Source: Octopus vulgaris (lineage: Eukaryota). From it: a stretch of DNA of 64,000 nucleotides. The position numbers were made by a program, and so were the translations under genes. The notes under the pieces are model-generated. The model did no database searches, was not told where the DNA came from, and saw nothing but the letters and a program-made list of their open reading frames with translations. Positions 2,959 through 58,064 of this stretch are shown piece after piece. The stretch covers positions 79,856,001 through 79,920,000 of the forward strand of contig OX597822.1 in the NCBI GenBank assembly GCA_951406725.2, read 5' to 3'. The first letter of the stretch is position 1, and every line of letters begins with the position of its first letter.

Positions 2959-4189
2959 ATTAAAGAAAACAAAAAGTAGATAGAAAACAAATAAAAGAAA
3001 AAAAATCTTGGAAAAAATTGCATAAAGTTTTTAAATAAATAAAATAAGACTATTCTAAAACGAGGTAGCAGCGCCCTGGGCTGCGCCCATGTCGGAGCAC
3101 TGTCTCCAAAAGTTTCAGTCGATCACATCAACCTTATTACTCGTTCCAGTCAAGTATTTATTTCAGAGATCTTTATTGGTTGGAAGACTAAATAAGGTAT
3201 TTTAAAACGACACCTTTTAGTACACCGGGAGCTTATGACTGCGAATCCAAATTTGTAAGCACATTCTCACATGCTTCCCTCAATTTACATGCAAACACAT
3301 AAATTATACATATTATGCTATTCTTTTATACGTTTTAGCGATGCTGTTGCGATCATTCTAGAGCACCATCGTAAATTTGTACCCTTTCCACAGACCTCCT
3401 CTGTGGCTGGTTTCTACTGGGGTGGGTGGGATTTCATATTAACTTTTGTATGTGCTTTTTACCTGGTGATTAGAGCATTAGGTGTATAATGGAGTTTGAT
3501 ACCACTGCCCTCGTCTATACTTCCTGCCGGGACCGTCGACTCGTCTGGGAACGGGGATAGGAGAATGTCCAATTCCGTTTTCATCCACATCCACATTGTA
3601 TAGGTTTCTTGTATAGCCTGTCATGTTTAGAGAAAATGACAGTGTCACAAGCAGCCTTTGACTTTCTCTATTCAAGGGTTTTTAAACCAATATTTACAAG
3701 CTATTATTTATAGCTCAATCTACTTCGAGTTCCACCATGTTCCTGTTTATATTCTTTTGTGAAAAACAAGTTGACACACACAATTTCTAAGGGTTTATAT
3801 ACCGGAATTGTACCATTGTCAAAGCAGAAGTTACAAATCCAATAATAACAAATGTAGCAAAAAAACTGTCACACCTTGGGCCTACTTAACAAAAGAGAAA
3901 CACCTTCAACCTTGTTTACAAAGTTCTACATGCATTGATAAATTCTAAACAATAACACAACCCCAAATTTAATCAAAATTTCTCCAAAAGACCTCTCCTG
4001 AACAACGAGTCCTGAATTACCACTCCTCTCAAATGCACACAGATATGTGATTGCATGTATGTATTTATATGTGTGTATAAATATAAGTGTATATGAATAT
4101 TTATATACGTATGTATATACATATATGTATAGGAATGTAAGTATATATATGTATATTTGTGCATGGATGTGTGTATGTATAATAAAATA

Positions 4190-4660
4190 ATAAATAAAAC
4201 ATATGCATATATACATACATATATGTACGTACCTACATCTATATGTATATATACATGCATATAAGGGTACAGGACACCAAAAAAACGTCGAACACAATGA
4301 GAAACGAAAACATAAAAACAAAACCAAGGAAATGGACATTTTTCTTAAACAACGAAAAATAGAGTACAAGACATACAACACAAGGAAAATTCCCATTCTT
4401 CAGCTGCCTCTGTTTCATCTACTCCGCATTTCGAAGGTAATGGCGAGACACGACTTCATTGAAACAATCCTTCCCGCAAAGAAAATTAAATAAAATTTGA
4501 GATTTTTTGCGGAGGGGTAAAAATGGTAACACAAACAGAACAGTAAAAACAATATAAATAAAAACAGTAAAAGACAGGACAAGGAGAATAACAGTAACAC
4601 AAATATTAAGGGCTGTTAAGCCTTATCGATGAAAAAATATTTTGAACGCTTTGAGATAGG
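4190..4660 (-). mobile_element. Dispersed repeat family X (probable Penelope pseudo-LTR), copy 1
   Basis: Near-identical to 7900-8430, 8700-8882 and inverted 8895-9245. Carries a permuted hammerhead-like motif. Confidence 0.6.
4392..4454 (-). ncRNA. Non-circularly permuted (S-G-C) hammerhead-like motif, degenerate copy
   Basis: Minus strand: CGTGTC-tcgcc...cttc-GAAATGCG...ggcag-CTGAAGA. Stems I and II are partly decayed. Confidence 0.4.
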
Positions 4661-7900: not shown

Positions 7901-8144
7901 CTTACTTGGAAGAGGACACGTGGCATTCAATCATATAATAACAATTTAATAAATAAAACATATGCATACATACATATATGTACATACCTACATCTATATG
8001 TATATATACATGCATATATGGATACAGGACACCACAAAAAAACGTAGAACACAACGAGAAACGAAAACATAAAAACAAAACATGGAAACGGACTTTGTTT
8101 AACAACGAAAAACAGAGTACAAAACATACAACACAAGGAACATT

Positions 8145-8208
8145 CTCCTTCTTCAGCTGCCCCTCTTTCGATTTATTCCGTATTTCGAAGGTAAGGGCAT
8201 GACACGAC
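8145..8208 (-). ncRNA. Non-circularly permuted (S-G-C) hammerhead-like motif
   Basis: Minus strand: CGTGTC-atgccc-ttac-cttc-GAAATACG...gggcag-CTGAAGA-a-ggag. Stem II GGAG/CUUC, stem III AUACG/CGUGU. Confidence 0.5.
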
Positions 8209-8971
8209 TTCATTTGAAACAGTTCTTCCCGCGAAGCAAATTAAATAAAATTTGGGATCTTTTGCGGAGGGGTAAAAAAGGTGACTAGAACATGACAGTA
8301 AAAGCAATACAAATAAAGCGAAAAACAGTAGAAATAAAGATAAAAGCAGTAAAAGACAGGACAAAGAGAAACAAACGTAAGGGCTTTTTAAGCCTAGACG
8401 GTGGAAAAATTAATTTGAATGCATTGAGAAAAACGGCTTACGAGGACAGGAGAAGCAGTTGTTGACTTGTTGAAGGCAGTAATCAGAAATAAAGTTAGTA
8501 GCCCCCTGGTCAGCGACGAGAGGGAGGAGGAGGAGCGAGAGAGAGAGAGAGAGAGGGGAACGGGGAAAGGGAGAGGAGAAGAAAACAGAAAGGATGAAAA
8601 ATAAGAGAGGGAGAGAGACAAGTAGAGAGGAAGACAGACAGGCAGGGAGGAAAGGTCAAGTAAAGAGTTAAGAGTGCGCGTCATAATTATTGAAATAAAA
8701 TTTACTTGGAAGAGGACGCGTGGCGTTCAATCATATAATAACAATGTAATAAGTAAAACATATGCATACATATATACATCTATGTACATACCTACATTTA
8801 TATGTGTATATACATGCATTTATGAGTACAGGACACCACAAAAAAAACGTAGAACACAACGAGAAACGAAAACATAAAAACAGTCCTGTTCTTGTCACCT
8901 TTTTTACCCCTCCGCAAAAAAATCCCAAATTTTATTTAATTTGCTTTGCGAGAAGGATTGTTTCAATGAAG

Positions 8972-9035
8972 TCGTGTCCTGCCCTTACCTTCGAAACACG
9001 CAATAAGTCGAAAGAAGGGCAGCTGAAGAAGGGGA
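8972..9035 (+). ncRNA. Non-circularly permuted (S-G-C) hammerhead-like motif
   Basis: CGTGT-C(8978)-CTGCCC...CTTC-GAAACACG...GGGCAG-CTGAAGA-A-GGGG. Stem III ACACG/CGTGT and stem I CTGCCC/GGGCAG are perfect; stem II is 4 bp with G-U pairs. Confidence 0.6.
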
Positions 9036-9257
9036 ATGTTCCTTGTGTTGTATGTGTTGTACACTGTTTGATCGTTGTTAAAAAAAGTCCGTTTCCATGT
9101 TTTGTTTTTATGTTTTCGTTTCTCATTGTGTTCTACGTTCTTTTGTGGTGTCCTGTACCCATATATGCATGTATATATACATATAGATGTAGGTATGTAC
9201 ATATATGTATGTATGCATATGTTTTATTTATTAAATTGTTATTATATATATATATAT

Positions 9258-10398: not shown

Positions 10399-13090
10399 TT
10401 GTTGTTGGCATCCCTTTTGTCTCGGGATACAATGGAGTTGCACATAAAATAATCTAGTCCGGCTTTTACATTTCATGTTCTAATATATCTCTTGCTGTGG
10501 CTGTGTAGTCATATCCTGGACAAACACTCCCTCTGGCAGGTGCCACAAAAGTAGCGAAGACTTTACCTGCCTAGTTTTAATGTCATAGTTTTTTGTTGAC
10601 GTCTTTTCTTGTCTTTCCATTTCTCCTCTTTCTCTATGTCACTCCTTTGTGTTCCCTCTTTTACGGTACATCGCCAATCTCCACGGTTGCTGGCAACTGC
10701 TTCCCAGTTGGTAATATTGATGTTGCAGGCATTCATGTCCCTTTTGCAAACATCCTTGTATCGTAAGAACGGTCTTCCCACAGACCTAGTGCCATTAGCA
10801 AGCTCTCCGTAGAGTATGTCCTTGGGGATTCTGCCATCTTCCATACGGCTAACATGTCCAAGCCTTCTCATATGTCTTTGTGTGAGGAGTGCAAACATAC
10901 TTGGTATTCCTGCTTGCTTGAAGACATCTTTGTTGGGGATATGATTCTGCCATTTGATGCGAAGGATTTTCTGGAGGCAGCGCAGGTGAAAGATATTTAG
11001 GCGACGCTCTTGGCGTGTGTATGGCGTCCGAGTCTCACTTCCACACAGTAGCATGCTAAGTACACATGCCTGGTAAATCTTCATTTTTGTGGTCTTGGTC
11101 AGCTTATTTTTGTCCCATGCCCGTTTGGAGAGTTGGGCCATCACAGCAACTGCCTTGCCAATGCGTATATTGAGCTCAGCATCAAGGGATAGGTTGCAGG
11201 TGACGGTAGAGCCAAGATAGGTAAACTTCTCCACCTCCTGTAGTCTGTGGTCTCCAATATATATGTTTGGGATGTCCGATGTAGCCTGACCCATGATGTT
11301 GGTCTTCTTGAGGCTGATAACTAAGTCAAAGTCGCTACATGCTTGCTCAAAACAGTTGATGAACCTTTGTAGGGCTTCTTCTGTGTGTGATACCAGAGCG
11401 GTATCATCAGCAAATAGCATCTACTTGATCAGGACGCTTCTGATTTTGGTCTTGGCATGAATACGCGAGAGATTGAACAGTTTCCTGTCACTTCTACTGC
11501 GCAGAAACGCTCCATCATCTGATGTCTCAAAGGCATGTGACAGCAGCAGCGAGACGAAGATGCCAAATAATGTAGGATCAAGGACACAACCTTGCTTTAC
11601 CCCGTTTTTTATTTGGAAGGCGGCTGATGTTGAACCATTGTGCTGTATGGTGCCTTGCATATCATCATGGAAAGATTTGATGAACCTCAGCAGCTTTGGT
11701 GGATATCCGATTTTTTGGAGCAGGATGAAGAGGCCTTTTCTACTTACCAAGTCAAAGGCCTTTATCTGATCAATGAAGGCCATATATAATGGCATTTTCT
11801 GCTCTCTGGACTTCTGAAGTTGACGTATGGAGAATATCATGTCAATAGTTGATCTGCTTCTTCTAAAGCCACACTGCGATTCTGGATAATATTCGAGAAG
11901 CAAGCAGTTGTAACCTGGACAGGATAACGCGAGCAAAGGCCTTTCCAACAGTGCTTAGAAGAGATATTCCACGGTAATTGTTACAATCAACACGGTCACC
12001 TTTGTTTTTGTAAAGCGTAATGATGTTAGCATCCCGCATATCCTGAGGGACTGTACTCTCTTCCCAGCACTGACACAGAAGCTCATGAAGATACCGAAGC
12101 AGGATGGTGTTTTTGCCGGTTTTGATGATCTCTAAGGGGATGCCATCTTTTCCCGGAGCCTTGTTACTTGCTAGGGAGTCAATAGCCTTGGTGAGCTCTG
12201 CTACAGATGGCAGACTGTCAAGTTCACACATGACTGGCAAGATCTTGACACCCTCGATTGCAGCCTCAGCTACCGTGGTCTCCCGTGAGTAGAGATCCTG
12301 GTAGTACTCCAACCATCTATCCATTTGCTTGCTTTGGTCCTTGATGAGCTCTCCAGTAGTTGATTTCAAAGGGGCTGACTTGGTTGCGGATGGACCGAGG
12401 GCCTTCTTCAAACTGGCATACATCCCACGGGTGTCGCCACTGTTAGCAGCTGACTGGATACTCTGACAGATTTCCTGCCAATACCTATTTGCACAGCGTC
12501 TGGTAGTCAGTTGGGTTTTAATCCTTGCCTTTCTGAGTTCTTCAAGTGACTTTGTAAAAGAATCACTCTTGTATTGCATCAGAGCTACATGCTTTGCTTC
12601 GATAACTGTTTCCAGCTGTGAGAGACCAGCACTGAACCAATCTGGGTTTTGCCTTTCTCTCATGCCGAAAGTATCTGTTGATGTGGTATACAAAGCTTCC
12701 CTGATATAATTCCACCTACTTTCATGAGAGGAAGTTGGGCAGCTAATGAGGGCAACCTTGATAGAAACAGCAAAACATTTTCGCAGCGTAGGGTCCGAGG
12801 TTCAGGCAGTGTTAATGCGTGGTCGGCCCATTTTCTTGGAGTGATGGACTTTGTTAGGCAGAATCCTCACCCTGTTTCATATAGTGAATGATCTTATTAG
12901 TGAATTCAGAAAGGATCTTCGTGTAATGATGAGATCCAGCTGATGCCAGTGGCGAGATCTTGGGTGTCTCCAAAATGCCTTGTGGGATGTCTTGTTGGCA
13001 AAGACTTTGTTGGTGATGTGATGCATAGGTTACGGTATGTGCAAAATTCAAGTAGTCTCTGACCATTGTCATTCATGTTGCCAATACCAA
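10399..13090 (-). mobile_element. RTE-clade (BovB-like) LINE, 5'-truncated, inactivated
   Basis: APE C-terminus (GIGNMNDNGQRLLEFC, HWHQLD) and RT (YRGISLLS, PESQCGFR, AFDLVSR, GVKQGCVL, LFADD, KDVCKRDM). Frameshift near 11900, stop at 11421-11423, 3' tail gatgccaacaacaa. Confidence 0.95.
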
Positions 13091-17799: not shown

Positions 17800-19602
17800 C
17801 TTTGTTTTCTTCTCACATACTTGTGTCTCTCTTTACTAACCGTCAGCCATTTTGTAGTTCTATTGTATGTCTTCATTTGCGCATGCTTATATCTCTATGT
17901 GCGTCTATGTTTATTTAGTGTGTGTGTGGGGGGGATGCCTGTAATATTTGTATCTTCTGGTTATATACATTCTTGTAATTTGTATTTTGTTTTTGTTGTT
18001 GTTGCTTTTGTTCTAATTTTGTTCATGTGTTTACATCCACCCATTATTATCATTACATATGCTTGTATGTATGTATAACAACAATATTAGTAATAATAAT
18101 AATAAATCTAATCGAAAAAAAAAAAAAAAGAATATACATATACATATATATATACATACATATACATATACATATATATATATATATACATATATACACA
18201 CATATATACACATATACATATACATATATATACACATACATATATATAGATATTCATTTCTATTTCTTTAATTACCTGTGTATTTATTATGTTTGCAGGA
18301 TCCACTATTGTCATATGTTGTGGTGTGCGCTATTGCTCCATTCTAGTTTTCTATTCAGGCTAGGTTTATTTTCTATTATATGTGTAGCTTCTGTAATTTG
18401 TCTAATTGTTGCATCTGTTCTATGTGTGGACAATATCTTAATCTCTATGTTATTGATTGATCCCCCGTGTTCTTGTTCGGCGTGTTTGTACAGAATCGAT
18501 GAGCTTTTACCTTCCTTGAGTTGTCTCCAATGTTCATTCACCCGCTCACCAATGCTTCTTGCAGTTTCCCCTACGTATGTTACTGTCTTGTTACTGCATC
18601 GTCCCTCTATACATCTTATACTATAGACCACATTTCTGGCTTTACAGTTCGTTTGTGGGCTAAATCTACATACAGTGCAATAGTTATCCGTACAGAGAGT
18701 TCTACTAAAAGGATAGCTTCTACCAATTATAGATCTGATAGGGTTGCCTGGCTTTTCAACAACCTTAATTCTTAGTTTAAGTTTATCTAGGGTCCTTCTA
18801 AAGCGGTACGCTAGTTCACCTCCAGGGGTGGTGTCAACGAACATGACACTCTGGTATTTATGAATGAACATTGGAGACAACTCAAGGAAGGTAAAAGCTC
18901 ATCGATTCTGTACAAACACGCCGAACAAGAACACGGGGGATCAATCAATAACATAGAGATTAAGATATTGTCCACACATAGAACAGATGCAACAATTAGA
19001 CAAATTACAGAAGCTACACATATAATAGAAAATAAACCTAGCCTGAATAGAAAACTAGAATGGAGCAATAGCGCACACCACAACATATGACAATAGTGGA
19101 TCCTGCAAACATAATAAATACACAGGTAATTAAAGAAATAGAAATGAATATCTATATATATGTATATGTGTATATATATGTATATGTATATGTGTATATA
19201 TGTGTGTATATATGTATATATATATATATGTATATGTATATGTATGTATATATATATATGTATATGTATATTCTTTTTTTTTTTTTTCGATTAGATTTAT
19301 TATTATTATTACTAATATTGTTGTTATACATACATACAAGCATATGTAATGATAATAATGGGTGGATGTAAACACATGAACAAAATTAGAACAAAAGCAA
19401 CAACAACAAAAACAAAATACAAATTACAAGAATGTATATAACCAGAAGATACAAATATTACAGGCATCCCCCCCACACACACACTAAATAAACATAGACG
19501 CACATAGAGATATAAGCATGCGCAAATGAAGACATACAATAGAAATACAAAATAGCTGACGGTTAGTAAGGAGAGACACAAGTAAGTGAGAAGAAAACAA
19601 AG

Positions 19603-32121: not shown

Positions 32122-33354
32122 CAGGGGTTGGACAAAATAATCAATACACCTTTAAATTTCAAGCATATTTATTTTAATAATGGGCAGGACCACCTTTGCC
32201 AGTAATTACAGCTTGAATTCTAGAAGGTATGGACTCGTACAAACTTTGAATTGTTTCCAAAGGAATTTTTGTCCATTCTTCGGGTTAAACAGTCTCTAGC
32301 TCTTGTAATGGTGATGGTGGAGGACATAGACTCCTTACATGTTTTTCTAAAATACACTATAAATGTTCAATAATATTGAAATCTGGGGACTGTGGTGACC
32401 AGAAAAGATGTTCAACTTCACTAGAATGTAACAACATTAGCTGTGTGAATTGGTCCATTTTAATCCTGAAAGACTGCGTTCCCCTCCTTCCGCAACCATA
32501 GGATGAATTTGATCAGATAAAATGCTTAGTCTTGACTATTAATTCTGCCACGAAGGGGAACCATTGGATCGGCGGATTTCCAAGATATAGCCCCTCCAGA
32601 TCATCACGGATCCTCGTCCATGTTTAACAGTTGGAAGAAGGCAGTCTGGGCCAAATGCTTTTTTTGGCTGTCTTCACACGTATACTTGACCGATGGTTAG
32701 AAATAAGATAAAGGATGACTGTCCGAGAAAATAGCATTCTTCCACTGCTCTAGGGACCAATCGGTAGGTTTTTACACCACTCTAAACGCATTGCAACGTT
32801 TGTTTTTGAAAGTTGTGGTTTTCTGATTGCAGCCCTCCTGTGACGTCCGGTTCTGTACAGCTCCTGGCGAACAGTTTATGTGGAAACTGGGTTCTCGAGC
32901 TCGTCATTAAGCTCTATAGTAATTTGAGAGCTGTTCTTTTCTGATCCTTTCTAACAATTCACGTAAGAGTCCGATGGTTCCTATCTCAAAGCTTTGGTTT
33001 TCTTCCGGAGTTTTGTTTCAACGAGGAGGTTTCTTCTTCTTTCTCAAAGGCTGTCATTACTTTCAAGACAGTATTCTTGATACACCAAACATTTCGGCTG
33101 TTTCTGTTACGTTAGAGCCTGTCATACGAGCACCAATAATTTGACCTCATTGAAAGTTCGATAGATCTGATATTTTAATGAATTTTAACGTAATTACCTT
33201 TTTCTGATGATACCTGAAAAGAAACAGCAATTTTAGCAAAACATAATAAATAAAGGAAAACATAAAAATAAACAAGGTTTTGACGATTTTATAGACATTT
33301 CAAAATTATGATGCTATGATGCTAGGTGTTTCCATTATTTTTTCCATTATTTTG
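32122..33354 (-). mobile_element. Tc1-like DNA transposon, decayed
   Basis: ta|caggggttggacaaaataatcaatacacct and aggtgtttccattatt...tg|ta imperfect TIRs. Minus-strand WSPQSPDFNIIEHL motif near 32360-32402. Confidence 0.8.
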
Positions 33355-33359
33355 TATAT

Positions 33360-34153
33360 TTGGATCAGATGGTAACACGTCAGAAATGCGTGAAAAAGAC
33401 GGTGCAAATGGGAGTTGGGGTGTGATGGTGTGGGCGGCATTTAGAAGCTTTGGTGTTGGCCCTCTAGTTAAAGTTGATGGAAAGCTAAATAGTGTAGGTT
33501 ATATGAATCTACTAAAGGATAATGTTGTGTCATATTTGACTCACCAAATGCCTCCGGGGGCTATTTATCAGCAGGACAATAGTCCTGTGCACAAAGCCAA
33601 AAAGGTTATGGAATTTTTTGATCACCATAATATTGACGTAATCGAATGGGCTCCCCAGAGCCCGGACCTGAATCCGATCGAGAACTTGTGGAATTATGTT
33701 TCCAAAAATGTCCATGCTAAAAAAAGCATCTAATCTAAAACAATTATTCGATTATATCAATGAAAAAAACATTCCCATAGAATTTTGCAATCACTTAGCG
33801 AATTCAGTGCCGAGGCGGTTGTTCAGCCGTTATTAAGAATAAAGGCTACGGCACAAAGTACTAATATGTATTTCGTTCTTGTTGCTCATTTTAGCTACTG
33901 TCTTAAGCTTTAAATAAAATTATAATGATACGGTCTTAAACTAATTTTGCCGGTAAATTTGAAACGGTTATATAAATTTAGCATTAGAATTATTCAAGTT
34001 GTATAAGAATAGTTATTGTCTGCATCAACCGAAAGAGAAATAAATTTTGCATAAGGTGTAAAAGTTAAAATTAATTTGTATGGTGTTAATAACAAAATAT
34101 TTTGTAAGAAATAGAACTTTTATCATCGGTCTTACATTTATTTTCGCCAGTGT
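33360..34153 (+). mobile_element. Second Tc1 (DD34E) transposon, 3' half
   Basis: VMVWAAF, YQQDNSPVH, WAPQSPDLNPIENLW. Ends in ...ttcgccagtg|ta. Confidence 0.85.
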
Positions 34154-35710: not shown

Positions 35711-36247
35711 TTACCACACAGCCACTCCTGCGCCTATACACAGACGTATTCATTCATATGTGCATATGTATATTCGCATGTATGTCAACGTGCAAATCAG
35801 TGTGCGCGCACACATGTATACGCGTGCACATGTACATGCGTACGTGTGCAAGTATACACGCACAAAAAAAGCGTTGGGAGTTGATAAGTGTCGGGGGCTG
35901 GTATCCGTTGTGTCTGTGCGTATGTGTGTATGTGTGTGTGTAGGCGCAGGTGTGACTGTGTGGTAAGGAGTTTGCTTTCCAACACCATGGTTCCAGGATC
36001 AATTCCACTGTTTGGTCTCTTTACTTCCTCATGCTCTAATAACGCTGTGGTTCGGCAAAAGAGAAAGATAGAACAAGTACCAGGTTTAAAAAAATACTGG
36101 TGTCGATGCATTCAACTGAAACTTATCCGAGGCGGTGCCCCAGCATAGCTACAGTTTAATATATATGTCATTTTTTGTTCCCAACTTTGACCCTCCATAA
36201 ATCCTTAATTTTATTTTAGAATTTATGGGAGCAACTGTCTTTGAAGA

Positions 36248-36311
36248 TTCATATTGTCGTTGAATGCTCGAAATGAGGAGTAGATAGCCGACAACTGATG
36301 ATGAGTCATTC
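36248..36311 (+). ncRNA. Non-circularly permuted (S-G-C) hammerhead-like motif, second family
   Basis: TTCAT-A(36253)-TTGTCG-tt-GAATGCTC-GAAATGAG...CGACAA-CTGATGA-T-GAGTCATTC. Stem I TTGTCG/CGACAA, stem III ATGAG/TTCAT, stem II GAG(T)CATTC/GAATGCTC. Confidence 0.7.
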
Positions 36312-36344
36312 TCTGTTAACTTGTCCTGTGTTCCATGTTTTTCT

Positions 36345-36415
<71 letters not shown>

Positions 36416-41489: not shown

Positions 41490-42060
41490 TTGATACTTTG
41501 ATAGGTTTCGGCCATTATTGGCCCAGGCCATGTCTAACTTAATAGCACCACCTGGTGAAGTCTTTCAAGTCAGAATTTAGGCACTATGGCCCACTCAAGT
41601 AGAGAGTTATTATTTACAGAGACATATCCGGGTGTAGGGGGTTTATCTGGGATTTCTTGAAGGAATCTGTCCAAAGACTTCTTGAACCCTATAGGGTCTG
41701 TTTCTGTTTTAATGTGTTTTGGTGTAATGTTAAAGAGAGCGGGGCCAATTGAGGTGAAATAATTGTGCCGTATTGTTGTTATGAGATGAGAGTGCGATTT
41801 TTGTTTTGGGCGGATGGCACGGGGCCCAAGCCTTGGATGTACCTTAAAGGTGATGCCAACATCATTTGGGCAATGCTGATGGAATATTTTCCACATCATG
41901 CAGATGATGTAGCGCTCACGACGACGTTGGAGATAATAAAGTTTTAGCTTTTCTAGTCGACCCCAATAGTCGAGGCCTGTCATGCCATCTATCTTTTTTG
42001 TGATTGCCCTTTGAGGTGCTTCAACTTTTATGATACTTTGTTTTGTGTGGGGAGACCACA
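41490..42060 (-). mobile_element. CR1/L2-like LINE 3' fragment
   Basis: WSPH...QRAITKKI...YWGRL..LKLY.LQRRRERY...FKKSLDRFLQEIPDKP. Confidence 0.85.
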
Positions 42061-43621
<1,561 letters not shown>

Positions 43622-44761: not shown

Positions 44762-45728
<967 letters not shown>

Positions 45729-46032: not shown

Positions 46033-49025
46033 TCATGGAGGCTTTCTAGCAACTGCTATTTGGTGCATGAGAGAGTTCGATGCAGCTGCCCTCATCTGCC
46101 CCTCCTGCCGTGAAGTTGGTTCATCTGGGACACCTGACAGGAAGAGATCCAGCTTCATTTTAAAGACATCTGTATCCACCCCATGCAGGTCTCTCAGGTT
46201 CTTCGGGAGGATATTGAAGAGCTGTGGGCCTCGGAAGCCCAGGCTATCACAGAATCTTGTCCTACATCTTGATGGCAGGTTTGGAGTCCTAGGCACCACG
46301 CAGTGGCGCCCAGTTCTGGCATTTGCGTAACTCTCGATGCCAAAGTTCAGGACACTTCCCTCCAGGATCTTCCAGATGTATATTATGGCATATCTTTCCC
46401 GCCTACGCTCCAGGGAATATAATTTTAATCTCTTGAGTCTTTCCCAGTAGCTTACATTCTGCATAGAGGCTATCTTCTTTGTGTAGCTTCGTTGGATCGC
46501 CTCAAGTTCTGTGATCAACTTGACACTGGATGGTGACCATAGCTGAGAGCAATAGTCAAAGTGGCTTAGGACAAGTGTCTTCCAGAGGACCATCATGGTT
46601 TCTTGTTCTCTTGTTCTAAAGGTTCTAAGAATCCATCCAGCCAGCCGTCTACATTTCATTGTCAGTTTAGCAACATGTACATGAAAGGTCGCGTCATCAC
46701 TCATGTGAATACCCAGGTCACGCACTGATTGTGCCTCTGGGATTGCAATCCCTCCGGGTCCAGTGTATTCATTGGGTATTGCATTCAGTTTTGCATGCTG
46801 ATAGTATAAAGCTTGAAACTTTCCAGCATTGAACTGCATGCTATTCTTTTCAGCCCACTTGTATATTTCGTCCAGCTCACATTGCAGGTGTTTAGTGTCC
46901 TCAGGGTTCTGTATTGCCTGTGAAACTTTTGTATCATCTGCATAACTTGTGATCGTGGCTCTCTGCGTGGCTGAGGGCATGTCTGAGAGGGCCATTATGA
47001 ACAGTAGTGGTCCCAGAACAGTGCCCTGCGGAACACCGCTCACTATTTGTGTGTTAATGGAGGTGGCCCCATTGGCTACTACCACCTGACTTCTATCCTT
47101 CAGAAAGTCATGAAGCCATTCTCCCAGTTTTCCAACTATGTTGAGATCACGCAGTTTGTGACATATTCCATGATCGACTTTATCAAAGGCCTTTGCAAAG
47201 TCGAGATATATCACTTCCACATTTGAGTGGTTGAGCAGCCGTTTCAGCACCCAGTCATAGTGTTGTAGGAGCTGAGTTAAACAGCTTCTCCCTGGTCGGA
47301 AACCATGTTGGGTGTCGGGCAGCAAGTCATTCTCTTCAAGGAAGGTGATCAGCTTCCTTCTGACTATTCGTTCCATGACCTTGCTGATGTGTGAGGTCAG
47401 AGAGATAGGTCTATAGTTCTTGGCTTCCGCTCTGCTACCTCCTTTATGAATGGGGCATATTTTACCTTCCTTCAGTTTTCCTGGAAGTTTGCCAGCTGCA
47501 AGGAAGCTCTGAAAGAGGAACTGCAGTGGTCTTGCTAGGACTCTCTTACATGCTTTTAGGAGGATTGCCGGGAATCCATCGGGGCCAGTAGCTGAGTCTG
47601 TTTTCATTTCATCTATAGCCTTGGTTACATCGTCTTCCTTTATATCGATGTAATCTATCGTCGCCGCCTCTGATTTTATATCTGCAGTGGTAAAAAAGTC
47701 AGTTGGATTGGTGATTTGGAGATGCCCAAGGGGTGGAGTAAAACACTCTTGAATTGCTCATTCAGTATTTCACTTACCCTCATTGGTTTTCCTGTAAGTG
47801 TGCCATCCTTTTCGAGGAGTGGCCCTATTCTACAGTGCACTGTAGCTGTTTCTTTGGCATACCTGTAGAAAGCTCTGGGGTTAGATTTTATGTTTTCTAT
47901 AGCCCAGGCTTCTTTGTCTGCTCTTTCTTTTTCATGGGAGCGTTGCAGACATTTTTCGATTTCCAACAGTTTTATTTTTAGGCGGGACTTTTCACTGCTT
48001 TCAATCTGTTTGTTTAGGCGATTTGAAAATTTCGTACGCCGTCTCATTAAAATTTTCCTCTCTCTGGGGATTTTGTTCTTGTGTACAGTGGCCTTTCTCT
48101 CTGGGACACATTTGTAGCATATGGCTTGCATTACAGACATGAATTGTTGAAGTTTCACGTCGATGTCTGGCGAGGAGAGACATTTAGGCCAGTTTTGTTT
48201 GAGGATCTCTTTCTCAATTTGTTTCCAGTTTGCCTTATGGTAGTTCAAGCTGGAAAGATTTTGAGGGTTTCTTGTAGGCTGCATGTCCGTGCTCTCTTTT
48301 GGCCCGTACATGGTCAGCTCTATCATGTTGTGATCCGAGAGTAGTGTCGGTGTCACTTTCACATTATGGATGAGATCCATGTCATTTGTGAAGCAGAGAT
48401 CCAGTGTGTTACCTGCCCTGGTTGGTTGGAGTATTACCTGCTCCATGTACAGGGTGTTGATGAGGTTCAGGAGGGACCTCGCCTGTCCTCGTTCACATCT
48501 TGTCATTCCTGGGAGAGAAAGGCCCTCGGGCCATCTGACATTGGGCAGATTGAAGTCTCCCATAAGAAGCACACCTATGTGTTGTTCTAATGTGGTTAGA
48601 ATTTCTTCTATTTTTATAAGGCAGTCTTCGAACTTGCCCACATGGCTTGGGGCATCTGGAGGGCGATATGTAGCACACACAACTACATCAAGTTGCCTAA
48701 TATGTACAATTAGTGTGTCACACACCGAGTTTGAGTATGACAAGAGGACCTGGGGTGTGAGGTCCTCACGGATGTACATAGCAACACCTCCATGACTCCT
48801 TTCTTTCCTGTCGGTCCGTAGTCCAGCATACTGTGGTATGTGTAACTCCGCATCTGCTATGTCCGGTTTCAGGTGCGTTTCTGTAAGTGCTATGCATAAG
48901 GCTTGATTGCATGCAACAAAGTCTCTCAGGAACGGAATCTTTGTCCTGTTACTGAGTGTTTGCAGTCCTCTGATGTTCAGTAGGAGTATCGAGGTGAGGT
49001 GTACGTTGTTGCCGGCGGTGTCCAT
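46033..49025 (-). CDS. LINE ORF2 (APE endonuclease + reverse transcriptase), one frameshift near 47700
   Basis: LLNIRGL, IALTETHL, GGVAMY, YRPP, MGDFNLP, LDLCFTN, SDHN; then YRPISLTS, QHGFRPGRSC, YLDFAKAFDKV, SGVPQGTVLGPLLF, YADD. Confidence 0.93.
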
Positions 49026-49887
49026 CCTGTGTCTGTTTGCTGTGGTGGTCTGGTATATAGTGGGTAGTCCCACCTGCGGGCTTGGGTTTGATGAAGCCAG
49101 GTCAGCTGCTGTACAATCTTTTGTGCCATGCACAAAAAAGATTGTTGCTCAGCAGCTGCTCTTTCGACAACATCATGTTGGCTGTTTGTGGCGCGCACAA
49201 CATCTGCGTACCTCCGCTTTGGGGCAGGTGGTGCGTGGTCCATCCCTTTTCTTTGTGTTGATGGTTTGTCCATCTGCCTCGTGTCTCTGTGGCAGGGTCC
49301 CCGATGTGCAAAGCGGCAGCCTGCACCTTCCTTTCCATGCCAGCAGGAACCTCTCAGGTAGAACATACACACCCGTGTGCGCTGTTTGGTTCCATCCTTT
49401 GCGGTTCCACTTCTATTCCTGGTTGTTTCACTCTTTGGTCCTGCTTGAGCTTTTTCTTTTCCTTTAGCTCTTCCAGTCCTTCTTTTAGTTCTTCTTCCTC
49501 CTCTACCTCTTCACCGGGTTCTCCGTCTCCATGGCCCTTGCTGCCGGTTGGAGAACTTGCACCTGGGTTCACTTCCCGGGCAGGTTTCTCATTCAAAACC
49601 TCCTCCCGGGCGTCCACCAGGTGGGGGTGACTTCTTTCATCGTCTCCATTCTTGCCATCTTTGCCCCGCTCGTTCTCAAAGATGGCATCAAGTGCGCCAA
49701 TGTGCGACCGTACAAGCGCATATGAGCGCACGAATTCCTGTCTCTTTCGCTCCATCTGAGCCGCTGTCCTCTTGTAGCCTCTGCTCTTCAGCGCAGCCGC
49801 AATCACCTCGCTAGGGCTATCTCCGCCGGCGCACTCCCATGCTCGTACGAATAAATCCAGCTCGTCACGTCTCCATGCTCTGGACAT
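48977..49887 (-). CDS. LINE ORF1 with Myb/SANT-like (trihelix) N-terminus and CCCH zinc finger, split over two frames
   Basis: WRRDELDLFVRAW...IAAALKSRGYKRTAAQMERKRQEFVRSY...LDAIF, and CMFYLRGSCWHGKEGAGCRFAH (C-x7-C-x8-C-x3-H). Confidence 0.7.
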
Positions 49888-57000: not shown

Positions 57001-57458
57001 TTATTTTTCACTTTTCCTTCTTATAGCATCGAGCTTTTCGTCTTTTGTAATTATCCATTCGGGTTGCTTCGTGTGTATATTCGATTTGCGTATAAAACGT
57101 TCGATGGTGTCTTGGGTTCGATGTATCGTCATTCCAATCATTTGAACGATGAGCGAAACCCCGAACAGAGAGCCATTGATTAAACCAAATAAATTCAACT
57201 TAGACTTTTCGGCTGTAATGTTTGTGTAAATGTATCCAAGGATGATCATCCAGATCGTGTTACAAGTCAGAAATGCGAAAACACTTTTGACGCGCAACTT
57301 CCGGAGTTTTTCAGCGATTTCCGACTTTGGTGCACCCATCCTCACCGTTGAACCAATAACGAAATCTCGTAGAAACCTCCAGAATTTGTATTCGACTTCT
57401 TCTTCATACTTGTCGAAGAGGCTAAAGCTTTGAGTGGAAGAATTCAAACTGGAAGAAA
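57001..57458 (-). CDS. Chitin synthase-like gene copy B, last coding exon
   Basis: cttttatttcAG acceptor at 57460-57459, phase 1. EYKFWRFL...LRKLR...NTIW...LFGVSLIVQMIGMTIHR; TAA stop at 57003-57001. Confidence 0.85.
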
Positions 57459-58064
57459 CTGAAATAAAAGAAAATATATGAAATAATTAAAAAAATAAGG
57501 TGCAGGTGTGGTTTTTTTTTTTTGAAGTTTCATTTCCAGTCACATGGTTCTACGTTCAATCCAACTGTGTGGCACTTTCAGTATCTGTTTTCTGCTGTTC
57601 TACTAAAGCAACGAGCCGACCAAAAGTCTTGTGAATAGATTTGGTAGACTGAAGACAAAAGAACGTTTTGTGTGTGTGCTTGCGTGTGTGTGTGTGTGTG
57701 TGTGTTCTCACCGCCACTTGACCACAGATAATTTGTTAACTTTTCCGTTAATTAGCGATTTGGTAAAAATTTCCGATAAAATAAGAACGAGACATTAAAA
57801 GAAATGTCCTGGTGTCAATTTATTCGACTAGGCCTTACAAGGTGGTGCCCCAACATGGCCGCAGTCTGAAAGATACAAAAAATATAAAAAAAGAAAAATA
57901 TAACAACTAGAACAAATGAATTATTTTTCTATTGTGAGTTGTAGCCATTGGATTGAAGCAAAGCCACCAAGGGAGAGTTTCTTATAGTTTCTGTTTCCCT
58001 TGTGGCAACATCGTGAAGAGGAAATGTGAAAGAATACAAAGGAAGCAAACATGGATTAACTTAC

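Follow-up and report, generated by a model that had tools for sequence, protein, structure and literature searches.

The motifs at positions 36248-36311 of the window, by which we mean the whole 64,000-nt stretch of Octopus vulgaris contig OX597822.1 analyzed here, raise two questions: whether a hammerhead ribozyme core is present in an unusual strand order, and, if it is, which strand completes its stem II. Reading of the sequence placed the 3' strand of stem III at 36248-52, with U16.1 at U36252 and H17 at A36253, stem I (UUGUCG/CGACAA) at 36254-59/36289-94, GAAA at 36270-73 and CUGAUGA at 36295-301, with stem III formed by UUCAU/AUGAG. All required core bases were present in this copy (C3 U4 G5 A6 N7 G8 A9, G12 A13 A14, A15.1-U16.1, an H17 that is not G, and G10.1-C11.1). 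A first-pass annotation of this DNA had listed the UH, stem I, GAAA, stem III and CUGAUGA in the block order S, G, C, and both the sequence and a descriptor search confirmed these positions and this order. The S-G-C descriptor matched the window twice, at this site and at 8977, and gave no match in 200 block-wise dinucleotide shuffles of the window, which served as the control. The hammerhead core at 36248-36311 is real. An Rfam scan of the window gave 252 matches, and hammerheads were absent among the 150 listed; the matches obtained were microsatellite-driven microRNA models and were set aside. The explanation that we prefer, and consider quite probable, is that the site holds a decayed hammerhead-core motif in a high-copy, non-coding Penelope-like repeat, with predicted self-cleavage by a four-block structure, likely a Naiad-type ribozyme.

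When the window copy was searched against its own genome (2.8 Gb), a first look gave 2,707 candidates, and 40 scored copies, self excluded, showed 87-90% identity. The repeat, family Y, has a non-coding monomer of ∼700-750 bp, and the window holds only 180 bp of it (36166-36345, forward strand), truncated at both ends, with the family's normal 3' end missing and 85-90% identity to sister copies. A (TA)n tract at 36346-36411 flanks the insertion, and (TA)n is described as the preferred target of Naiads in the available text of Craig et al. (2021; PMC8557442). A copy of a second family, X, with the same fold lies at 8883-9248 on the forward strand (P4 5' strand 8907-8911, T strand 8952-8956, core 9023-9029, P4 3' strand 9030-9034; the helices are defined below). 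On the reverse strand, a full-length X unit lies inverted, together with a partial second tandem unit, at 7927-8890, in a pseudo-LTR-like arrangement, and alignment identified a third X-type copy, from another subfamily, at 4178-4597. The first-pass annotation had treated the motif at 36248 as independent of family X. However, X and Y aligned end to end with 57.6% identity over ∼660 nt (E = 2e-13) and had their 5' and 3' ends in common, and on this alignment we regard them as homologous sister subfamilies. Their common 3'-end motif occurred 5,976 times in the genome (control, 0), and a gapped core pattern matched 11,320 times, compared with 118 for its reversed control. Among 70 loci fetched from the core-pattern matches, a few (L206, L316, L318, and L319) belonged to a different repeat family with GAAA 20-25 nt before CUGANGA, which slightly inflates the count of 11,320.

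Copies of X and Y ended at a fixed 3' position and were truncated to varying extents at the 5' end; partial tandems, inversion of 5'-truncated copies, tails of 30-40 bp, and (TA)n flanks and targets were also seen. These features agree with the insertion pattern described for Naiads, and for Penelope-like elements, in the parts of Craig et al. available to us (PMC8557442). Unlike the Naiads of that description (PMC8557442), the X and Y copies seen encode no protein, and none was found joined to a reverse transcriptase (RT); no single open reading frame with an N-terminal GIY-YIG and a C-terminal RT was found in the copies examined. Pieces of Penelope-type reading frames near L022, L034 and L046 sit in the flanks of the repeat. 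X and Y resemble non-LTR retrozymes in being non-coding and partly tandem, but their hammerhead is not type I.

To judge conservation of the core, 34 of 50 copies chosen by their 3' end were used, the 16 rows that did not span the region being left out. The 13 core positions averaged 91% identity, compared with 63% for 28 stem positions, and the anchors in this comparison were best matches to the core, which biases it towards core conservation. Individual core positions were conserved at 79-100%, all 13 were intact in 14 of the 34 copies, and H17 was not G in 32 of them. Copy 5' ends were then examined in 85 copies, also chosen by 3' end (90 minus 3 duplicates and 2 short regions). At +1 to +30 after the predicted cut, which falls between 36253 and 36254 in the window copy, 5' ends were found in 21 of 66 copies at risk; the adjoining 30-nt intervals had 3 of 45 (upstream; Fisher p = 0.002) and 5 of 71 (downstream; p = 0.0003). 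The excess was located at +4 to +30, with none peaking at +1. It fits templates whose 5' ends would have been made by cleavage, and could be mimicked by RT stalling inside a pseudoknot. The Naiad family itself (70 copies) had no clear 5'-end peak (8/70, 2/62, and 7/60), and upstream tandem units began at the cut site in 0 of only 5 cases. Three raw RNA runs carrying the label of a related species, ∼6 in 100 of each, contained family-like reads in either orientation (844, 748, and 586 in number), with no pile-up of read ends at the cut site, although fragmented libraries covering thousands of copies could hide one.

The location of the excess inside the structure, and the lack of a clear peak in the Naiad family, would also suit an RNA element that does not cleave, or does so only when activated by protein (an RT binding site, for example), with the pile-up produced by RT stalling in the knotted structure. 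A precedent comes from another Penelope-like element, that of Anolis, whose hammerhead, in the available text, cleaves only with protein and is unnecessary for insertion in vitro (PMC11167929). We nevertheless consider this reading improbable, since the catalytic bases and the non-G H17 are kept across subfamilies with different stems, the catalytic bases are also kept across distant Naiad RT lineages, and the sites at which stalling is most to be expected, the 3' edge or the stable P5 hairpin, have few 5' ends.

In the first-pass annotation, stem II was drawn from bases downstream of the core, as GAG.CAUUC/GAAUGCUC. Such a structure would be a three-block hammerhead of type SGC, in which stem II comes from the bases after CUGANGA and the upstream sequence is irrelevant. 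To evaluate the helices by covariation, we assembled a 38-row octopus alignment from 28 rows hand-picked from the 70 loci, nine close X/Y copies and the window copy. The five helices counted were paired in 91.9% of cells, with 180 two-sided changes compared with 66 in shuffles, a control whose significance is overstated by the kinship of the rows, and pairing fell to 38-45% when the strands were slid. Stems I and III covaried across subfamilies, as the annotation had proposed, and stem II as drawn did not: the downstream helix could be drawn (4 bp) in 96.7% of cells through an invariant G-run and G-U pairs, the second pair being U-G in 37 of 38 rows, and two-sided changes were nearly absent. 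In contrast, an upstream strand, which we call T, paired with the bases before GAAA in 97.4% of cells, with two-sided changes at three of five pairs and nearly all pairs Watson-Crick. This upstream stem II reads GAGCA/UGCUC in Y, GAAGG/CCUUC in X, GAACG/CGUUC in a third subfamily and GACAC/GUGUC in the octopus Naiad.

Additional helices accompany the T strand. The G-run after A9 pairs with a pyrimidine strand 110 nt upstream to form P4 (84.8% of cells paired; two of six pairs change on both sides), and a hairpin, P5, sits between P4 and the T strand (90.4% paired; four of six basal pairs change on both sides). A sixth helix, P6, bridges stems I and II on their free sides, as in type SGC, and had at least 5 bp in 23 of the 35 correctly anchored rows (3 mis-anchored rows were excluded) and in all 15 metagenome loci listed. 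In an earlier drawing, the linker was paired with the tail (ACAG/CUGU plus a second segment); this helix was dropped because the same linker pairs upstream, with covariation, as P6. In the window, all on the forward strand, the P4 5' strand occupies 36189-36194, the P5 hairpin 36195-36228 (pair probability 0.93, ending immediately 5' of G10.1), and the T strand 36229-36233, with G10.1 at 36229, upstream of the predicted cut. The P6 5' strand follows at 36235-36240, where pairing counts predict the stem I-stem II interaction. Sequence and covariation define block S at 36248-36259 (stem III 3' strand, U16.1, H17, and stem I 5' strand) and block G at 36265-36277 (stem II 3' strand UGCUC, G12 A13 A14 A15.1, and stem III 5' strand). 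The P6 3' strand lies at 36282-36287, where pairing survives a 4-nt deletion via one G-U, block C, read from the sequence, at 36289-36301 (stem I 3' strand and CUGAUGA), and the P4 3' strand, which in the family lies directly after A9, at 36302-36307. The original span of 36248-36311 thus misses ∼60 nt of structure upstream (36189-36247). The base after A9 that had been described as extra is where P4 starts, and no bulge, and the upstream GAAG said to be retained reads GUAG in many X copies. Covariation supports every helix of the four-block model T-S-G-C. Of the permuted, pseudoknotted hammerhead originally proposed, the non-circular permutation and the pseudoknot stand, and the three-block SGC arrangement gives way to four blocks.

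Evidence on both sides of the type-SGC reading comes from the window copy itself, in which several positions, 36302, 36304, and 36308 among them, depart from the sequence of four sister copies. The changes at 36302 and 36304 break P4 and also create the alternative downstream stem II (36303-36311), so the helix originally drawn can form here but depends on these private changes; the tail of the window copy occurs twice in the genome, compared with 1,810 times for the family tail. At this locus, a stem II strand within 1-2 nt of CUGAnGA, with block C unbroken, arises only through the private variant. The duplex energy of P4 was -1.5 kcal/mol in the window copy and -8.7 kcal/mol in copy L010, in which the same bases give -2.2 kcal/mol when paired downstream, and P4 pair probability was 0.02 and 0.95, respectively. 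With a folding program that cannot form pseudoknots, P4, P5 and stem I were recovered in an intact copy (z = -3.9) and stems II and III were not; the window copy gave z = -1.2 with P4 lost. It has kept the core and five helices, and has gained a competing helix between tail and S block (-7.3 kcal/mol). With P4 lost, the window copy is probably defective or poorly active by these fold predictions, and since its downstream stem II has a small energetic advantage over the upstream one (-6.5 compared with -5.4 kcal/mol), it might fold as an accidental SGC.

We then looked for the four-strand fold in Naiad elements. In the octopus genome, a 20-nt motif from the published Naiad_Ovul tail had 301 exact copies, and at 4 places among 56 loci, Naiad RT remnants were followed by the fold at a distance of 0.8-1.4 kb. 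The Naiad fragment matched an RT in Pfam only below threshold, and a homologue search returned 15 unnamed proteins. In the supplement of Craig et al. (PMC8557442), examined at 60 of its 62 CTGATGA sites and, for every other core variant, at the first 20 sites, T-S-G-C could be recognized by eye in Naiad_Obim, Naiad_Ovul, Naiad_Aacu, Naiad_Anas and four more consensus sequences, and type CSG in Naiad-1/-2/-3_Nbra. One further Naiad consensus there has, by eye, an apparent S-T-C-G four-block order and an extra A in GAAA.

A test independent of the shuffle control on the octopus rows was obtained from metagenomes. An RT alignment yielded 68 Naiad-RT loci, and exclusion of 13 with <300 nt downstream left 55, which were searched with a four-strand descriptor that accepted any strand order, required G10.1-C11.1, and did not require P4, P5, or P6. 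T-S-G-C was found in 16 loci, CSG in 3 and no match in 36, many of which were short and some decayed or of other forms. The antisense strands gave a match in 1 of 55 loci, and 1,100 shuffles (20 per locus) gave 4 matches, none of them T-S-G-C. P4 and P5 were present in 15 of the 16 T-S-G-C loci, with a score of at least 10 in 14 of 16 compared with 3% of 3,200 shuffles; the P4/P5 junction had no unpaired base in 9 of 15, a count that reflects a score penalizing gaps. P4 averaged 5.6 bp with its own partner and 1.7 bp with swapped partners. Helices I, II and III are supported by covariation in the 38 octopus rows and in the 16 metagenome loci. The 16 RTs are distinct and fall in several clades, some on long branches, and in 7 of the 16 loci a GIY-YIG motif precedes the RT in frame, matching the order of domains in Naiads. 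The T-S-G-C motif is likely to be the ribozyme of many Naiad elements. In three other loci (L262, L263, and L265), type-CSG hammerheads with perfect stems lie behind Naiad RTs that form one supported clade; type CSG was previously known from two unique soil sequences.

The first-pass annotation had suggested an association with Penelope RT/GIY-YIG, and this was borne out for the fold, at the four octopus places and in the seven metagenome loci, but not for X and Y, for which an autonomous partner was sought: their 3' end lay beside an RT in 0 of 56 loci of the genome. Because of this, what links X and Y to Naiads is the shared fold and the insertion pattern, from which we infer that they are non-autonomous elements mobilized by a Naiad-type protein.

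The same loci bear on the type-SGC reading, which we now consider slightly less probable than a non-cleaving element. It can claim the downstream helix of the octopus rows, the energies of the window copy, and two metagenome Naiad loci, L253 and L272, that look truly SGC by eye (cores ∼1.5 and ∼2.0 kb after the RT, in a separate Naiad clade). However, the downstream helix had no more than 1 bp in 13 of the 16 T-S-G-C loci, and in octopus it amounts to an invariant G-run whose bases pair better in P4, its extended form being a two-copy variant. Somewhat less probable still is a conformational switch, in which the T strand and P4 would hold the RNA inactive until the released downstream G-run formed an active SGC stem II: in the octopus families the UC before GAAA is open to pairing with either strand, and the G-run after A9 is retained in X, Y and the octopus Naiad, but the downstream partner is absent from most non-octopus Naiad loci, so that the upstream strand is their sole stem II, the upstream helix begins with the canonical G10.1-C11.1 in 16 of 16 loci (a condition of the descriptor), and P4 already accounts for the G-run.

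In the four-block hammerhead that we favor, the strands would run P4a - P5 hairpin - T (the stem II 5' strand) - P6a - S - G - P6b - C - P4b, with the RNA ends lying in P4. A9 would continue into P4 instead of G10.1, P4 would stack on P5, and P5 would lead to G10.1. Because A9 enters P4 and G10.1 is reached from P5, the A9/G10.1 step is predicted to be a tight four-way junction, at which the core, stem II, P4, and P5 may meet in three dimensions. Four-way junctions are known as folding scaffolds from the natural hairpin ribozyme. Catalysis would presumably be the ordinary hammerhead acid-base mechanism (G12 and G8), with the cut 3' of H17, ∼150 nt before the 3' end of the element. The A9/G10.1 position appears to tolerate insertion, since Penelope-like hammerheads often have one extra base between positions 9 and 10.1 (in the portions available of PMC4209133 and bioRxiv 10.64898/2026.07.22.740005). 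As P4 closed with a loop would give a circle of the CSG/SGC class, T-S-G-C can be viewed as that class permuted circularly, with its opening inside the inserted helix, and tandem units would make such re-cutting easy.

Eckert et al. (2023; PMC10085705), in the text available, enumerate six permutations of the hammerhead, assuming that CUGAnGA is contiguous with a stem II strand; they validated cleavage of types SGC and CSG, and report SGC from metatranscriptomes and none in genomes of known organisms. The octopus motif shares with these types the S-G-C block order, the full catalytic core, a linker of 2-3 nt from stem I to stem II, and an additional helix, here P6, that bridges stems I and II on their other sides. 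In contrast to them, it takes its stem II strand from the 5' side of the cut, P4 and P5 are inserted between A9 and G10.1, and it is found in animal retroelements, whereas type SGC came from metatranscriptome RNAs (PMC10085705). By every criterion that can be applied to sequence, the motif is a hammerhead, yet it lies outside type SGC, and its predicted wiring is a new hammerhead topology. The first-pass annotation had guessed that novelty might lie in the families and host rather than the topology; comparison with the published permutations shows this guess to have been too modest, because the topology is new as well as the host.

Craig et al. (2021), as far as their text was available, state that Naiads are without canonical hammerheads, flag unexplained 'core' and 'half core' motifs, and list Naiad_Ovul as 'HHR_half_core' (PMC8557442); the 3' UTR of Naiad_Ovul, like that of other Naiad consensus sequences there, has the same RNA fold as X and Y. 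The position of the hammerhead near the 3' end inside a pseudo-LTR, and the existence of small non-coding derivatives, recall canonical Penelope-like elements and non-LTR retrozymes. The type I or minimal hammerheads of those elements are circular permutations with a very short stem III that act as dimers, whereas the structure here has stems of 4-6 bp and two pseudoknots and is apparently monomeric (both comparisons from the available portions of PMC4209133 and bioRxiv 10.64898/2026.07.22.740005). Our reading of the wider field drew also on the accessible parts of PMC13725137, PMC10162972, PMC6765202, PMC6155905, PMC12192606 and PMC8370743. A literature search made mostly outside subscription journals returned no report of T-S-G-C wiring or of a Naiad hammerhead.

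The PK hammerhead was reportedly first found by Weinberg et al. in 2015. Like the motif described here, it is a natural variant in which an unchanged core has gained a helix and a pseudoknot, but the helix gained there is formed with the loop that A9-G12 and G10.1-C11.1 close (Zhan et al., 2024; PMC11300833, available part). Core variants and the PK form are described by Perreault et al. (2011) and Zhan et al. (2024; PMC11300833), with no helices between A9 and G10.1 in the parts of these papers available.

If the four-block reading is correct, it would account for a gap in the published record, namely that Naiads reach very high copy number and yet 'lack canonical hammerheads', and that some of their cores match no descriptor. 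It would break the assumption behind the six permutations, that nothing beyond 1-2 bases separates CUGAnGA from stem II, and would move non-circularly permuted ribozymes from unassigned metatranscriptome RNAs to animal genomes. Tandem pseudo-LTRs would offer a natural route among the CSG, SGC, and T-S-G-C orders, and current descriptor and Rfam searches would be overlooking a large class of animal ribozymes. We think it probable, though with somewhat less assurance than for the explanation of the locus itself, that Naiads of many animal lineages, together with their derived copies in this genome (more than ten thousand), employ an active hammerhead opened at A9/G10.1, that this is a seventh wiring beyond the six permutations, that the clade shuffles CSG, SGC, and T-S-G-C, and that non-circularly permuted ribozymes have in it their first known source in cellular genomes.

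Several observations were made in passing on the repeats. X and Y have a short 5' segment in common, within their first 40 nt, after which comes a GTAAG donor-like site; ∼300 nt on, Y has a pyrimidine-rich stretch with a CAG acceptor-like site (L025 and L074), an arrangement of putative splice sites that resembles the 5'-UTR intron of Penelope. Internal deletions in L349, L369, L399, and L329 remove part of the ribozyme, some of them joining strands adjacent in the fold; they are possible template jumps. More diverged families in the genome (L229 and L220) have the same or similar wiring with other stems.

Elsewhere in the window, two similar coding-looking segments on opposite strands (2491-2955, forward; 57004-57486, reverse) had no Pfam match, and may correspond to C-terminal exons of chitin synthase. 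Remnants of other mobile elements include a GIY-YIG piece at 18314-18898 (reverse), the thumb of a Penelope-like RT, identified by eye, at 42034-42672 (forward), a LINE with endonuclease and RT at 46036-49148 (reverse), another LINE RT at 10566-12801 (reverse), and a DDE transposase at 33326-33730 (forward). A near-perfect long inverted repeat with arms of ∼60 bp at 45381-45520, the source of the MIR837 match in the Rfam scan, is probably a small DNA transposon or a palindrome.
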